DNA from: Marispirochaeta sp.
Lineage (GTDB): Bacteria; Spirochaetota; Spirochaetia; JC444; Marispirochaetaceae
Assembly: GCA_963676835.2 (NCBI GenBank)
Contig: CAXXFF010000004.1
Span: 288,001 to 352,000 of the forward strand
Length of the DNA stretch: 64,000 nucleotides
Direction of reading: 5' to 3'
Positions 21,001 through 30,000 of this stretch are shown piece after piece. Made by a program: the position numbers. Within the stretch, counting starts at the first letter, position 1, and each line of letters starts with the position of its first letter.

Positions 21001-24000
21001 GATGAGGATGGAAAACACCGAGGTTGTACTGCAGGTGGAAGATGCCTGCAGCCGGGTGTATACATCAGGAAACACCAGAACTCCGATGTTTCCCATAATA
21101 TTAAAGATTACTCCCAGACCGAAAAAAATTGCCGCCGCAATAGTCACAGGTCCCCTCCCCGGTTTTTCTGCCCGCCGAAGTAACGGGTAAGGGCAAGAAT
21201 TCCGACGAAGCCGAATATATCGTAAACCAGGGCCACATCAAGATAGATTACATGATTACCTGCCACGGAATAGATAACCAGCACCGCAAGGGTCTGGGAG
21301 GCAACCAGATTGAGCCCTGTCATACGGTCAGCCACGGTGGGGCCGATTACCACGCGGATCATACTGATAACGGAGGAGGCAATAAGAAAATAGATCAGAT
21401 AAGTCAGCATCAGAGCCATACCCTTCGCAGCAGCTTCTCAAAGGTGCCTTTTATAAGATCCCCGGCATAGCGGGAATGGCTGGTCCGGGCATCAAGCCAG
21501 TGAACGATCAGGTGATCATCATCCAGATCCAGGGTAATGGTTCCGGGAGTCAGGGTTATGGAGCTGGTCAGGGCAACCCGGGCAATATCCGTCTTAAGGT
21601 GGGTGCGAAAATGGACAATTCCGGGGTTTATGCGTCCCCGCAGAATATTGAGAAGAACCTTGAAACTGGCCACATACATATTGAAGATGAGTACCAGCAG
21701 AAAGACGACAAACATATGCGGCCGGGGAAGGTGGGCCCGGCGGCCGGCTTCGGACTCTTCAATAAACTGCCGGTAGGTAAGCAGGGAAACCAGCAGACTT
21801 GCAACACCGCCGGCAACAAGCGAACCGGAATCCAGGGACCAGGTAAAGAGCAGCCAGCCTCCGAAAAGAGAGAAAAAGGTAATGAAAAAGCGGACCAGGG
21901 CCCAGCGGGTTTCAAGCCTCATTTACTCTCCCTGCTGATAAAAGCCGCCATTACCTCCTCTGCTGAGGATGCCGCCAGAAGAGCATTGCAGAAGGTACGG
22001 TCGTGGAGGTACCGGGCGAGCCGGCTGAGAACCTTCAGGTGTCCCGCTTCATCCCCTTCCGGACCAATGAGCAGGAAAAAGAGGGCCACCGGCTGATTAT
22101 CCACGGCATCGAATTTTGCCCCCTCAAGCCTTCTTCCGAAAACAATGCGGGTGTCGGCAACCTGGGAAGTGAAACAGTGGGGAATGGCAATGCCCGAACC
22201 GATGCCGGTGGTATTGATCTTTTCCCGCTTCTTCAAATCCCGCACAATTTCATCGGGCTTTGCAAGCTCGGTACTGCGGGCGAGGATATCAACCAGTTCC
22301 CGTAAAATATCCGGTTTGCGTCTGGACTTCAGAGACAACTCTATACCTTCAATGGTAAGAAGTTCGTGCAGCAGTGCCATCAATCCTCCTCCACCAGTCC
22401 CGCAGCCCAGTCCACAGGCAGGGTAAACAGAATTCCTGTTCCGGGATTGTCCAGACCGCCGCAAATCTCATTCAGCAGACTGTGAAGCCTTGGAACCAGG
22501 GACTCATTCTGAACAACGGAAAAAATGGTTTTGTTATAGGGTTTATTCCCTTTCATGAACTCTTTGAATCCTGCAAAAAGGGGTACCTCATAGGTTAGAA
22601 ACCGGCCCATTCCCTCGGAGTCAAGGATGGTTCCTCCGGAAATTCCTACTTCCGCATATGCTTCCAGTACCTGTTCAAGGAGTTCTTCACGATTCAGTAC
22701 AAACACTACAAGCTTCATATCTGCTTTCCCGCGGCCGCCGGCTAAGGGCGGTTTACTGATATGTTTTAAGGTACCCGGTGACTGGAGGGGAGTCAATGGA
22801 ATATTCTGGCCAGAATCAGTTGAGAATCAATTAAGATAGGTACTGAAGCTGTCAAAGATATGATAGCGCCTAAGGTCCGGAAGATTACCGATTACTATCC
22901 GGTTTTCATATTCCACCCAGGCGTGGGCTTCAAAGGGTTCATCCCCCCCCATGGCAACTCCAACTTTAAGCTCAACAGAATAGCCCTGACGGCGGCATAG
23001 AGTATATGCAGTAAAGGCCCGGGGCAGACAGTTGTAGGTTCCGGGAAGCAGCCTCCCCCATATTTCAACCCAGCGGCAGGTATCAACAACACCTGCGTCG
23101 AATCCACCGGCTGGAGACTTCTCCGCCTGCTGCTTTAAACGGCTTACGGCCTGCTGAAAAGGGTATCGGCGGAGAACCAGCCTTGTGCTGAAAAGCATCA
23201 TCCCCGCCTGGAGAAACGCAGCCTTCCCCCTGGAGGGAAGCGCGTAAAAGCGGCGGATTTTATTAAGCAAGCGTATCCACAAGACCTTCTTCTCCAAGTT
23301 TCTCCGCAAGGGCGAGAATATCCTCCCTGCACTGATCTTCTGCAACATCGAATTCCTGCTGAACCAGGGAACACAGACCTGCAAGGGATTCAGCCTTAAC
23401 AATATTCTTCCAGATAAAAGCTCCTACTTCATTGAGACTGAAATAGAAACCACGTTCAACATGCATGAGCACCATTTCACCGTTTACTTCGGTATGAATA
23501 ACCCCTTCCCGCTGCTGTATCCGTGTATTTAAATCCATAGATCGGCTTCCTTCTTCTTTTTATGATACCCTTGTATTCTAATGAAAAACACAAAAACGTA
23601 AAGCATTGCCCCGGGAGGGCTTCAAGCAATACTGAAGCCATAGTAGTATAAGGGGCATGAAAAAAACAGCAGAAGAAGAAATACTGATCGCACTGACTGC
23701 GGATAGAACCGACAGGGCAGTGTCAATTATAAAAGCCGAAGATCCGGATTACCGGAAACTGCTTCAATTAGCGGCGAAGCACAAACTTCACGGTATTACC
23801 GCCCAGAAACTGCTGGATATTTCCCGGCAGACTGGAATTGAACTGTCCGAAGCCGATATTACCGGAACCCTCCAGGCGGCGGTGGCCATGAATATGCAGC
23901 TGAAAGCCGGGTTTCTTGGTGTAAAGGAGATGCTGAAAAAAGAGCAGGTTGATTTCCTGCTGATAAAAGGCTTTGCCCTGGATCCGTCCCCTTTGAGGGC

Positions 24001-27000: not shown

Positions 27001-30000
27001 AGTAAGAGGTAGGTTATGAGAATAGAATGATCCTAACTGCTCACTGTGCTGCGGAACCTTCAGCCCCCGTTGGCCCGCCAGGCTTATAGAACCTACAGGA
27101 ATTTTAAGCTTTTCGAAGCCCGGGTGTATTTTTCCGTAATTATCCGGATTTCCCCCTAAAATTTTCAGCTGATGAGAAAAGAGCTTCATCTGGGGAAATC
27201 CCGGAAAAGCTGTAACTCCATCAGGTCCCACGGACAAAGCCAGAATATCATCAGTTACCAGGGGATACCCCCCTGCGACACAGGCGGTAGCCAGGGTGGT
27301 TTTACCGGTGCCGGAATCTGCAATAAAAGCGACGCAGCCGTCTCCTGCCTTGACGGCCGATGCATGCAGCATAAGAATACCCTGCCGCTCCAGCCAGAAG
27401 GACATAACATTGCCCACAAAGAAGATCTCAATAAGATATTCAATATCCGGCAGCAGAGGATGGGCGGTAATCTCATTACCCCGCATTTCAAATCCGCAGA
27501 CCCCGGTTATGTAGAGGGTCTCGCAGGTTTCGGAAAGAAAAAGCTCCACCCGGCCCCCCTCATAGTTTTCCACCGGGGCACGGACCCCTTCCGGAGTGTA
27601 CTCCGGGTTTACGGGCAGCACGGAAAAAGAGAGATCTACTTCGCCCCGGGGCTCCTCCGGAGGCAGGAGATTGAAAGTAAAGGGAAAGGATGAAGCGAGA
27701 TGCGCTCCGTAAAGCATGTAACGGGATTCATTCATGTACAAGAAGCCCCTGTTCCTTCAAAGATGCGGCAAAATGCTCCAGATCCTTTCGAATCTCTTCC
27801 GGATCGGCATCGTAGAGGCCCGCGAGCTCTTCCGCGGCCTTTACGGTACTCTCTGCCCGAAGCAGTATATCCCACATATCCGCCGCTGTGTCTTCCAGAA
27901 GGAAACAATCTCTTCCCTGCTCTTCTCCGTTTTCGGTAAAGTCAGCCACAACAATGCGGTTTTCACCGATCCTGGCGGCCACAACTTCAGGGGCGGCAGT
28001 CCAGCCGGAAGGGCTGTCCTCATGCAGCTGAACAGTCCCCCGGTCTTCTCCTTCAAAACGGTTTCTAAAACAGCGCTGCGGAGGATAGAGGCGAAAGGCA
28101 AGTTCAATTTCGTCGGTAACGGAATTAATAAAGACACTTTCCGGTTCGCTCCAGGAGAAAACTATTGTTTTTGGATGACCTGTCCAGAGAACCTTTTCAC
28201 CTGATTTACTCTCCCATCCCGATTTCCACTGGGCATAGGTTTCTCCGTACATCTCCGGAGCCTGGTCCTGGTACTCCATGGCCGCCGTAATGGGAAAAGA
28301 CTGATGAACTCCACCTTTACCGTTACAAAGAGATTCCGGTGCAGCCAGAACCGCAACATGAACCTCCCGGTGGGGCTCCTGCTTCTGTATGGATTCGACT
28401 GTCTGGCGGATTCTGAAGCCCGAGAAAACCGCATCGTCCACAAGCAGAATTGGACGCTTTACCGCTTCCCCTCCCCTGCTCCCGGTTTCGGTCAATTTCC
28501 CCAGGGCATAGAGCAGCAGGCCGCAGACGATATATCCACCCCGGGGAACAGGTCTAATCTCAAACTGAGCCAGCCTCTCACGGCCGTATGTCCGGATAAG
28601 TTTCTCCGCAAGATCTTCCGCAAAATTTTCCGCCTCAGGGTAGCTGATATAGAGTGAATCTTTCAAAGTCTGGGGAATCTGGGTCGCCAGGCGGGCAATC
28701 AGTTCAACCCGCTCAGGAGATAAATCACCAAAAAGATAGATTCCTTCCTGCTCTTTTTTTTCTACATCATGGTGCAAACGAAGCACCATATATGCATCAC
28801 TCAGCCGGGAGTCCCGGTTCAGAGTATCTCCAAGTATCCGGAGAGCAGCGGCAGCATCTGAAGCGCCGGTCAGTTTTAAAAGGGATGAAGAATCTGTAGT
28901 TGTCGAGAATAGTTTAACTGCTTTAAATGACATAAAAAACCGGGCACCATGTTACCACGGGCCCGGGACCTCTATTCGTTAAGATTAATAGAAAAATAGT
29001 ATATCAGAGATACTAAATAATACTGCTGGTTGTTTTAATTGGCGATCCGCCTTCTGAAACCGTACCGGCGCCGCTTCCTTCACTGCTGCTTCCCTTTCCA
29101 CTGCCGAAAAGCGCCTCGATAATGCCTGACTGCGTAAGATCGGCTACACTACCCCACTCTTTAATCTGCGGTTTCTGGTATTGCTTTTTTGCCTGCATAT
29201 TATTCTCCCTGAGATATATTCTCAATAAATAAGTGTATACCCCAATTTTACAGCGGTCAATGTTAAGATGAGAAAATAACCGGTATTTTTCAACTAAAGA
29301 AGGAGTTCCGTCTGTCTACCTGGTAAACAGACGGATAGCAGTAAATTAATACTCGCCCCGGGGACCGACGATCTCGATCACATTCAATGACCCGTTACCG
29401 CCGACTCTTTCTGTCAGCTTGGTAACTGTTCCCCACTGCTTTACTTCAGGCTTGGTGTAGGTTCGTTTTTCCTGTTTTTCGTTCTGCATCTTTTTCTCCT
29501 TGAAAAGTTTTTAATGGGTAAAGTCTGCACGGTGTCAGCATAATTGTCAAGGTTTTCTTTGGCGTCCTGTGATGGATTCCCGGGGTTTGAATATTTCTGG
29601 TTCCGTACCCAATGTTACGGTTTCTTTTTCCCCACTATATTACTATTATTCTCAGAATAGACAAAAATCCAGAGAGAAAGCATACAGGACGGAGAAGCAT
29701 GAGTTTTATCAGCCTTGACGATACCATATTCACTATTACCGAAAAATATCCCGAAACGGTGGATATTTTTGTCAGCCGGGGGTTTCCCGGCATGTCCGAC
29801 TACAACCAGCGGGCCGGCTACGGCAGGCTGCTGAGCCTCAGAAATGCCCTGAAAACCAAGGGACTGAATGAGGAGCTTTTTACCGGGCTTCTCAACGAAG
29901 CAGTGGAGAACCAGAGGGGAGCTGCGGATATAACCCTGGCCAAAATTAAACACACAAGCAGTTCTAAAGCGGTAAAGATTGCGGGGCTTCTCCCCTGCCC

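Follow-up and report, generated by a model that had tools for sequence, protein, structure and literature searches.

A gene cluster that holds lasso-type precursors and leader peptidases, and in which no enzyme to close the lasso ring is found, raises the question of what kind of peptide it makes. We studied such a cluster in Marispirochaeta sp. (genome G000). The window, that is, the whole stretch of DNA analysed, is 64,000 nucleotides long, and the cluster occupies its positions 22827-29489. Eight ORFs were found at the coordinates given by a preliminary description: two precursors (A1 and A2), B1, B2, an ABC exporter, an NTP_transf_5 nucleotidyltransferase (N), a kinase (K), and a PRTase-like/RRE fusion (g03827). 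Considering that all parts of the pathway but the ring-closing enzyme are present, the product probably consists of linear, decorated peptides. With moderate confidence, we regard the cluster as a cyclase-less derivative of a phosphorylated-lasso subtype having the fusion and the kinase, which would make linear, leader-cleaved, Ser-modified peptides. Linear peptides had already been proposed in the preliminary description; that part is supported indirectly by the missing cyclase, the lost acceptor, the selection on the genes, the intact Cys and His of B2, and a published in-vitro leader cleavage by B1 and B2 in which no cyclase took part. The uniqueness of the fusion is not supported, and the caveat that the fusion might be the cyclase has become unlikely.

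Organization of the cluster

All features lie on the minus strand unless stated otherwise. The B2 leader peptidase (22827-23402), a transglutaminase-core Cys protease, matched NF033537 at 81.3 bits (cut 33) and PF13471 at 79.6 bits; its ORF as listed begins at TTG, and the real start is probably further downstream. B1 (23263-23538), a discrete PqqD-type RRE predicted to bind the leader, scored 71.2 bits with PF05402, and its best NCBIfam match, NF033536, was under the cut (66.8 bits, cut 80). With B1 and B2, the leader-peptidase pair of lasso clusters is present. Cys125 and His160 of B2 were invariant in 23/23 aligned B2 proteins, that of the window included, and B1 shared 52% identity with its counterpart in a canonical lasso cluster of a same-genus genome (G002). 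The nucleotidyltransferase (23657-24868, plus strand; PF14907 76 bits, cut 31.2), which corresponds to gene N in phosphorylated lasso clusters, shared 45% identity with N from the lasso cluster of G002. The ABC exporter, with fused permease and ATPase (24908-26734; PF00005 112 bits, MsbA/HlyB-like NCBIfam matches all below their cuts), was best matched, among the loci, by that of a lasso cluster in a Spirochaetaceae MAG (L077). The genes of the HprK/PEPCK-fold peptide kinase (26731-27741) and of the fusion (27728-28933) overlap at 27728-27741. The family assignments and scores reported before were obtained again for B2, B1, NTP_transf_5, the exporter, the kinase, the fusion, and the A1 leader, that of B2 with NF033537 now being the value given above.

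Between A1 and the enzyme genes there is a hairpin followed by a U-run (28935-28975; MFE -24.1 kcal/mol, z -3.45 with 200 shuffles), which may act as an attenuator. A promoter-like site upstream of A1 (29232-29260; TTGACC-17-TACACT, 9/12 consensus matches) and a terminator-like hairpin after A2 (29307-29335; 13-pair stem) were recognised by consensus only. The whole island is flanked by a P-II-like gene and by one for an SBP; in the same-genus genome G005 these two are adjacent.

Precursor peptides

A1 (29013-29198) has 61 aa, starts at an ATG with AGGGAG upstream, and matched the lasso leader NF033521 at 22.5 bits (cut 19). A2 (29346-29489), of 47 aa, had no NCBIfam match and carries the strict leader motif. 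Translated in six frames, the 64-kb window had just two matches to this motif, Y-x2-P-x-[LIV]-x3-G-x5-T-x, one in A1 and one in A2, and shuffled sequences (200) gave a mean of 0.06 matches and a maximum of 2; both precursors have the canonical lasso leader previously assigned to them. The A1 leader would terminate in DLTQ, leaving a core of 38 aa, SGIIEALFGSGKGS...SSII, and the A2 leader in KLTE, with the 20-aa core RVGGNGSLNVIEIVGPRGEY. The C-terminal residues are Ile and Tyr, respectively.

At positions 7-9, the A1 core has L-F-G and the A2 core S-L-N, so the statement that neither has Asp or Glu there could be confirmed directly. Among the family precursors adjoining a fusion gene, 44/47 have Asp or Glu at positions 7-9, the exceptions being those of G004, L024, and L027. 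A1 keeps Gly2, Gly13, and Ser14 of the family pattern, in which Gly13 is present in 36/47 and Ser14 in 27/47, and it has Gly at position 9. Judging by the conservation of this motif, Ser14 of A1 is a candidate for phosphorylation.

Search for a cyclase

None of the eight genes encodes an asparagine-synthetase-type cyclase. Throughout G000, PF00733 gave 7 places at E<=1 (5 in the preliminary description), of which 3 were above the cut-off and none was inside the cluster. We also built a profile from 16 cyclases of the family and searched with it both G000 and G004, a same-genus genome in one contig of 4.5 Mb that has the same cluster. No cyclase was detected with it in G004, where the best match had E 6.5e-4, and the absence of a cyclase stated before thus holds in both genomes.

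It could be thought that the ring is closed in trans by a cyclase whose gene lies in another part of the genome. PF00733 together with the 16-cyclase profile pointed in G000 to only two proteins of the Asn-synthase family, at C2:~3.9-5.8 kb and C4:~560.7-562.5 kb. However, both begin with MCG, which provides the N-terminal Cys nucleophile, and both scored above the cut of the glutamine-hydrolysing Asn synthase TIGR01536 (498 and 441 bits, cut 267) and far under that of the lasso-cyclase model NF033535 (230 and 208 bits, cut 525); by these signatures they are true asparagine synthases. Moreover, G004 has no homologue, and the cores offer no acceptor at 7-9. We consider a trans-acting cyclase highly improbable.

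Structure and family of the PRTase-like/RRE fusion

The fusion matched PqqD at 36.6 bits and Pribosyltran (PF00156) at 20.7 bits (cut 26.3), the latter over residues 162-199 only. Its AF2 model, from 61 sequences, reached a pLDDT of 92.9 and a pTM of 0.90, and the kinase, modelled with an alignment, a pLDDT of 91.2; the poor models obtained before for both proteins are explained by missing alignments. Three parts are distinguished in the fusion: an N-terminal domain (~1-90) whose fold is not known, a domain (~88-295) that in the model has the type I PRTase fold, and a lasso-B1-type RRE (309-401). Residues 88-295 were aligned with 5vog (Z 11.2, 141 aligned, rmsd 4.4), HGXPRT 4z1o (Z 10.8), and 1w30 (Z 10.3). 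The type I PRTases HGXPRT, XGPRT, and PyrR, together with the predicted PRTase TT1426 (1wd5), gave Z 9.6-11.2, and Foldseek matched the domain to XGPRT and related chains at E 2.4e-5. Residues 309-401 were superimposable with TfuB1 (6jx3_B; Z 10.0, rmsd 2.1, 85 aligned, 26% identity) and TbiB1 (5v1u; Z 9.8), and the profile of the fusion matched TbiB1 at E 7.6e-15.

Like type I PRTases, the fusion has a PPi loop with R-G-G and a PRPP loop with an acid pair and then S/T-G. R131-G132-G133 and D166-D167 are present in the window fusion and in 59/59 relatives, and G172 in 58/59. In contrast to type I PRTases, with which the sequence similarity is marginal, it has the added RRE and N-terminal domain, and a family-specific F-x-W-x-E-P motif. 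Directly after the Asp-Asp pair, the fusions of the window and G004 have Ala in place of the nearly invariant Cys of the family (55/59 relatives); they also have Cys at position 137, where 51/59 relatives have Leu, and they share a long stem branch of 1.57 changes per column. Given the replaced Cys and the long stem, the activity of these two fusions may be changed or lost.

The fusion had been described as unique, with only 3 relatives. That count was reproduced by a word-indexed search alone (3 besides g03827), whereas exhaustive HMMER searching gave 412 representative clusters at E<=1e-3, of which 339 passed <=1e-10 and 60 passed <=1e-30. Most relatives are ~400 aa long and are matched end to end. 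Databases name them "PqqD family", and the Atlas neighbours of the fusion bear the names PqqD or hypothetical only. The family is large, widespread, so far undescribed, and normally part of true lasso clusters.

Genomic context of the fusion family

Context loci (80) were retrieved via two sequence motifs that the fusion of the window does not itself match, so the tally reflects the family's mainstream; the loci of the closest relatives by alignment, P0003, P0006, P0007, and P0011 (35-47% identity), lie outside it. The detectors for C, K, B2, and N were HMMs made from the loci themselves; at four loci of the family (L020, L054, L077, and L085), the one for the cyclase was checked with Pfam or NCBIfam. 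A cyclase was found beside the fusion in 29/32 loci with at least 6 kb on each side, in 61/81 overall, and in 7/7 metagenome loci with upstream context. Since the family is mostly beside a canonical cyclase, the fusion seems to be a tailoring partner and not a substitute cyclase, and g03827 as a non-homologous cyclase is unlikely.

The same data bear on a wider alternative, namely, that a ring or lasso is still formed, either by a non-homologous enzyme (the fusion, or the nucleotidyltransferase through activation of a carboxylate) or on an atypical acceptor, for example Glu5 of A1. Glu5 is conserved in both species (G000 and G004), the PRTase-like and nucleotidyltransferase folds both handle activated phosphates, and the fusion has no assigned function. 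However, the families of the fusion and of N, homologues of which occur in 23 loci of the set, normally adjoin a canonical cyclase, which argues for accessory enzymes and not replacements, and the first acidic residue of the A2 core is at position 12. Lasso rings of 5 residues are not known. Taken together, we find this alternative decidedly improbable.

Two uncharacterised lasso clusters with the fusion and the kinase serve as examples. That of Nodosilinea sp. P-1105 (L020) has the order B2, B1, C, A, fusion, K, methyltransferase, D, N. This locus and that of Halomonas socia NY-011 (L085) share with the window the fusion family (28-40% identity), the kinase family, the leader, and a Gly13-Ser14 core; unlike the window, they carry a cyclase gene immediately upstream of that of the fusion, and Asp at core position 8/9.

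Kinase and known phosphorylated lasso clusters

Sequence matches of the kinase were weak (TIGR04352, E 3.1e-6, and PEPCK_ATP). Its model, however, was aligned with PEPCK 1ii2_B at Z 15.1 (279 aligned, rmsd 5.3) and, over residues 121-336, with HprK/P (1jb1/1ko7/3tqf) at Z 13.0, the best match outside these two families being only Z 5.2. H126, G146, K147, and D165, of which G146-K147 form the P-loop, were invariant in 41 aligned kinases. The kinase of the cluster was only 27% identical to that of G002. Among loci with room on both sides, the kinase gene was on the strand of the fusion gene in 44/53 and within 500 nt of it in 36/53. The pairing of the fusion with an HprK-fold kinase, often plus NTP_transf_5 and an ABC exporter, defines a subtype that is widespread and undescribed.

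Bradymonas sediminis FA350 has, according to its description, a bsf cluster with the genes A, B1, B2, C, D, K, and N that makes a phosphorylated lasso peptide; BsfB1 and BsfB2 cut BsfA in vitro without the cyclase, and BsfK phosphorylates an internal Ser in a reaction boosted by B1 (PMC10368454). As far as that account goes, bsf and the window have in common a split B1/B2, an HprK-like kinase, a PF14907-type nucleotidyltransferase, and an ABC exporter; the window differs in having no cyclase and no ring acceptor, and in its extra fusion, which the bsf and G002 clusters do not have. In the paeninodin (pade) and pseudomycoidin (psm) clusters of Bacillota, as reported, the nucleotidyltransferase lies between B2 and D, the kinase acts on the C-terminal Ser of the precursor, and PsmN attaches hexoses to the phosphate (PMC8498205). 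The window keeps their B1-B2/N/D neighbourhood, but these clusters are described as having a cyclase and making lassos, and their kinases target a C-terminal Ser, while the window cores finish in Ile and Tyr. Literature searches returned no description of a PRTase-like protein in any pade/psm-type cluster.

Proposed pathway

In the cyclase-less derivative that we favour, B1 and the C-terminal RRE of the fusion would bind the lasso-type leader of A1 and A2. The kinase would then phosphorylate a core Ser, the best candidate being that of (K)-G-S at A1 core position 14, and the nucleotidyltransferase may extend the phosphate, like PsmN in pseudomycoidin. It is possible that the PRTase-like domain adds, or aids, one further modification. 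B1 and B2 would cleave following Thr(-2)-x, and the ABC protein would export a linear modified peptide, with neither macrolactam ring nor lasso fold.

Comparison within the genus and selection

The cluster is present in 2/6 genomes of the genus. As had been noted before, a same-genus genome has it in the same order with one precursor and no cyclase; we found this syntenic cluster in G004, whose A1 orthologue is P0005, and A2 has no counterpart there. The same-genus G002 carries a bsf-type cluster with its cyclase (NF033535 613 bits). On a tree that is unrooted, parsimony and the retention of the lasso leader, B1, and B2 speak for a loss of the cyclase here over a gain elsewhere.

A decaying remnant, in which the cyclase is gone and a useful product is no longer made, would account for the missing class-defining enzyme and acceptor residue, for the presence of the cluster in so few genomes, and for the fusion, which has lost its nearly invariant Cys and evolves fast, on a long stem (59% identical in G000 and G004, where most flanking genes reach 88-92% and the SBP reaches 78%). 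Nevertheless, all eight ORFs of G000 and all seven of G004 are intact despite dS>1. The seven shared genes, precursor included, have 59-83% amino acid identity and dN/dS of ~0.09-0.17, values that are rough since dS is saturated and that point to purifying selection on all of them. B2, the kinase, and the loops of the PRTase domain keep their catalytic residues, and G000 has gained or kept a second precursor. Decay is therefore unlikely, though less so than the ring-forming alternatives; the first 10 core residues of A1 are the same in both species, and its C-terminal SII is also kept.

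Organization and maintenance of the cluster

The cluster is real, is under selection and is devoid of a cyclase. Its eight genes occupy window positions 22827-29489, on the minus strand throughout except for the nucleotidyltransferase. The precursor A2 (47 aa) lies at 29346-29489 and the precursor A1 (61 aa from its ATG, with AGGGAG upstream of the start) at 29013-29198; they are followed by g03827, which encodes a PRTase-like/PqqD fusion protein of 401 aa (27728-28933), by the kinase (336 aa, 26731-27741) and by the ABC exporter (24908-26734). The NTP_transf_5 nucleotidyltransferase, on the plus strand, is located at 23657-24868, the discrete RRE, B1, at 23263-23538 and the Cys-protease leader peptidase, B2, at 22827-23402. 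The Pfam and NCBIfam scores previously reported for these genes were reproduced. The strict lasso leader motif was matched twice in the six frames of the 64-kb window, only in A1 and A2, against a mean of 0.06 in 200 shuffles. A stable hairpin with a U-run (z -3.45) was located between A1 and the enzyme genes, and a terminator-like hairpin 3' of A2.

The cluster is maintained and not decaying. The seven cluster genes shared with the same-genus genome G004 showed 59-83% identity and a dN/dS of about 0.09-0.17, at a saturated dS of 1.2-2.0, while the flanking genes of the two genomes showed mostly 88-92% identity (78% for the SBP gene). Cys125 and His160 of B2 were retained in 23/23 aligned B2 proteins, and the P-loop and Asp of the kinase were also retained. 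The kinase model (pLDDT 91.2) adopted the PEPCK/HprK fold, with Z scores of 15.1 and 13.0 and a first match outside those kinase families at 5.2.

Search for a cyclase

The cyclase is the defining enzyme of lasso peptides. In the genome of the window, PF00733 was found at seven places at E<=1, zero of them inside the cluster. The proteins of the two strong matches begin with MCG..., that is, with the Cys nucleophile at the start, and scored 498 and 441 bits with TIGR01536 (glutamine-hydrolysing asparagine synthase, cut 267) and only 230 and 208 bits with the lasso-cyclase model NF033535 (cut 525). A cyclase profile, A5, was built from 16 cyclases adjoining relatives of g03827, and it detected no genes in this genome beyond those two. 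The possibility that a cyclase acts in trans was rejected considering G004, a single 4.5-Mb contig bearing the syntenic cluster, where the best match of the profile had an E of 6.5e-4; there is no such enzyme in G004, which is a strong argument against a trans-acting cyclase, for that genome at least. Core positions 7-9, L-F-G in A1 and S-L-N in A2, were consistent with the missing cyclase. Because two defining features, the cyclase and the ring acceptor at positions 7-9, were looked for and not found, the cluster is not a lasso cluster by definition. No description of cyclase-less clusters of this kind was found in the open literature searched. According to the RRE-Finder paper, about half of some 8,000 lasso-type RRE matches were without peptidase and cyclase and were treated as possible false positives (PMC7470986).

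The PRTase-like/RRE fusion family

Of wider relevance, g03827 is a member of a large tailoring family that is as yet undescribed. The preliminary description had called the fusion unique, a claim that did not survive the change of search method: the word-indexed search had given three relatives, whereas an exhaustive HMMER search returned 412 representative clusters (E<=1e-3), of which 339 reached E<=1e-10. Most of the proteins matched are about 400 aa long and align over their full length. The databases name the family only as "PqqD family" or hypothetical, and no description of it was found in the open literature searched. In the accessible parts of two RRE surveys (PMC12710340 and PMC7470986) the words phosphoribosyl, kinase and nucleotidyltransferase are absent, as is PRTase in that of the former.

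The AlphaFold2 model of g03827, calculated with 61 relatives aligned, had a pLDDT of 92.9 and a pTM of 0.90. Residues ~88-295 form a type I PRTase fold, and this domain dominated the matches of the fold search so far that no fold was assigned to residues 1-90 (5vog, Z 11.2; HGXPRT 4z1o, Z 10.8; PyrR 1w30, Z 10.3; TT1426 1wd5, Z 9.7 and 24% identity). Residues 309-401 superposed on the leader-bound lasso B1 proteins TfuB1 (6jx3_B, Z 10.0, rmsd 2.1 over 85 residues) and TbiB1 (5v1u, Z 9.8), with a profile match to the latter at E 7.6e-15. The complex prediction for the fusion and the kinase gave scores of 0.00, 0.31 and 0.00, which count neither for nor against an interaction.

The R-G-G of the PPi loop and the D-D of the PRPP loop were invariant in 59/59 relatives, and so were W261 and P264 of the F-x-W-x-E-P motif in the fusion family. 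Residue 168, directly after the D-D pair, is Cys in 55/59 relatives and Ala in the window and G004 fusions; residue 137, four residues past R-G-G, is Leu in 51/59 relatives and Cys in these two. From the alignment, Cys137 may be a relocated active-site Cys. Taking into account both the change of Cys to Ala after D-D and the new Cys137, the PRTase-like activity of the window protein may not be the one of the mainstream relatives.

Genomic context of the fusion family

In a scan of 185,579 species genomes, seeded with the motifs RGGLIVLGM and [VI][VIL][VI]DDC..., 149 loci were confirmed, and the best 80 of these were kept. The window's own fusion matches neither pattern, so the context tally is representative of the mainstream members; the tally also leaves aside P0003, P0006, P0007 and P0011, the closest relatives of the window fusion (35-47% identity). 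Loci were annotated by HMMs for which the window's proteins and sequences of the loci themselves served as input, and the cyclase detector was spot-checked with Pfam on L020, L054, L077 and L085 and with NCBIfam on L020, L077 and L085. The hosts among the best 80 of the 149 loci were Gemmatimonadota, Cyanobacteriota, Halomonadaceae, Acidobacteriota, Chloroflexota, Actinomycetota, Trueperaceae, Rhodothermota, Verrucomicrobiota, Spirochaetales MAGs and two Methanomicrobia MAGs. Canonical lasso clusters with the fusion and kinase module extend over more than ten phyla, methanogen MAGs included.

Within these kept loci (the best 80 of 149), an Asn-synthase-type cyclase was present in 29/32 having at least 6 kb on each side, in most cases immediately 5' of the fusion gene, and G004, L027 and L059 were the cyclase-less ones. 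Overall, 61/81 loci showed a cyclase within the locus DNA at hand. The kinase was on the same strand as the fusion in 44/53 loci with room for it (at <=500 nt in 36/53), and NTP_transf_5 genes occurred in 23 loci of the family set. The order in L020 (Nodosilinea) was B2, B1, cyclase, precursor, fusion, kinase, methyltransferase, ABC exporter and nucleotidyltransferase, which is the window's gene set plus the cyclase. Metagenome loci with upstream context had the cyclase in 7/7. The notion that g03827 is itself a substitute cyclase was rejected, since its family co-occurs with cyclases; its position beside a cyclase in most loci indicates that it serves a lasso subtype as an accessory enzyme and does not replace the cyclase.

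It was also possible to see a tandem pair of Asn-synthase-like cyclase genes instead of one in L019, L030, L055, L076, L090 and others. The lasso-type set was also present on two archaeal MAG contigs, 4.6-5.2 kb long and possibly misbinned. In L053 (Methanospirillaceae), B1, B2 and the cyclase came with two precursors, the fusion and the beginning of a kinase gene; L057 (Methanoregulaceae) had part of a cyclase gene and two precursors together with the fusion, kinase and ABC genes. Apart from a single fragment with 43% identity, the metagenome scan seeded with the six closest relatives yielded only distant members (24-31% identity), and the contigs of P0003, P0006, P0007 and P0011 were not among its matches. 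The fragment, on a 3.5-kb contig cut off on its upstream side (L110:1-3472), is the C-terminal part of a fusion followed by kinase, ABC and NTP_transf_5 genes, the order closest to that of the window.

Precursor peptides

The precursor set comprised 47 leader-bearing small ORFs at <=1.5 kb from a fusion gene. Asp/Glu was found at core positions 7-9 in 44/47 of them (loci kept, the best 80 of 149), and the core consensus was x-G-x-T-x-P-G-x-D-x-K-x-G-S, with Gly13 in 36/47 and Ser14 in 27/47. The fusion is a marker of a conserved lasso subtype, the core motif of which is x-G-x-T-x-P-G-x-D-x-x-x-G-S. A1 (core SGIIEALFGSGKGS...) keeps Gly2, Lys-Gly-Ser14 and the leader, but its ninth core residue is Gly. 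The peptide of G004 is identical to A1 in the first ten core residues and shares the C-terminal SII. We infer that the conserved Gly-Ser is a candidate modified residue. A Rhodospirillales MAG contig of 2.9 kb (L024:11-2630), too short to assess the cyclase, has a precursor adjoining fusion and kinase, with the core VAAGNGYNGS... and no Asp/Glu at positions 7-9.

Proposed function

An internal Ser of BsfA is phosphorylated by the kinase BsfK, a reaction that the RRE BsfB1 enhances, and BsfB1 plus BsfB2 separate the leader from the core in vitro with the cyclase absent (PMC10368454). In paeninodin-type pathways the kinase phosphorylates the precursor, and the nucleotidyltransferase PsmN puts hexoses onto the phosphate (PMC8498205). 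By analogy, the window's cluster would correspond in function to the tailoring part of a phosphorylated lasso pathway. The two RREs would bind the leader and the kinase would phosphorylate a core Ser; the nucleotidyltransferase and the PRTase-like domain, possibly with PRPP, would extend or add to the phosphate, and cleavage after Thr(-2)-x would precede export of a linear product. The cyclase was probably lost, yet the predicted functions of recognizing and cleaving the leader, tailoring the core and exporting the product stay under selection, which suggests that tailoring chemistry alone can yield a useful product. With a linear substrate and no threading, the cluster is a simple system in which to study its kinase and nucleotidyltransferase and, in particular, its PRTase-like/RRE protein.

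A more specific proposal, which we consider rather improbable, is that fusion and kinase constitute an autonomous leader-guided module putting a phosphate-linked ribosyl or phosphoribosyl group, with PRPP as donor, on the core Gly-Ser, with or without lasso formation. The module would then act in canonical lasso clusters as well as in cyclase-less settings, the spirochaete-type island of the window and, as an independent case, the cyanobacterial loci with a CHAT protease. If so, this chemistry would have no precedent described for ribosomal peptides, and the window would hold a naturally occurring cyclase knock-out whose function lies in the modification and not in the knot.

Origin of the cluster

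The cluster was present in 2/6 genomes of the genus, and the P-II-like and SBP genes that flank it adjoin each other in the same-genus genome G005, which defines it as an island. When 400 other genomes were sampled from the phylum, the fusion family was not found in them at E<=1e-10. In an unrooted quick ML tree of 33 fusion proteins of known cyclase state, the fusions of the window and G004 were joined as a starred pair, whose stem was long (1.57) and which was placed weakly (SH-aLRT 89) beside a cyclase-bearing Verrucomicrobiota locus. The cyclase-less state required two changes on this tree, the second being that of L027 and L059.

At a different place in the same-genus genome G002 there is a canonical phosphorylated-lasso-type cluster (L101, G002:C14:19000-38999, ~2031-10571). 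It has B1, B2, a cyclase (NF033535, 613 bits), kinase, ABC exporter and NTP_transf_5 nucleotidyltransferase, and its precursor core GEGWRGNSD... bears Asp9; unlike the window, it is without a PRTase-like fusion gene. Identity between both clusters was 52% for B1, 45% for the nucleotidyltransferase, 29% for B2 and 27% for the kinase. Because the window's B1 and nucleotidyltransferase are nearer to the G002 cluster than B2 and the kinase, these comparisons hint at a mosaic origin.

A cyclase-less kinase/fusion pair was also observed in the cyanobacterial-type loci L027:7145-11434, L059:6475-10554 and L062:7086-11077, from Altericista sp. CCNU0014 and MAGs, in the order SBP, CHAT-domain protease, kinase and fusion. 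No B1, B2 or cyclase was found there within 8-10 kb, and the CHAT protease may stand in for B2. Just downstream in L027 lies a 50-aa ORF with a lasso-like leader (W..P.L...G.....T.) and a core without Asp/Glu at positions 7-9.
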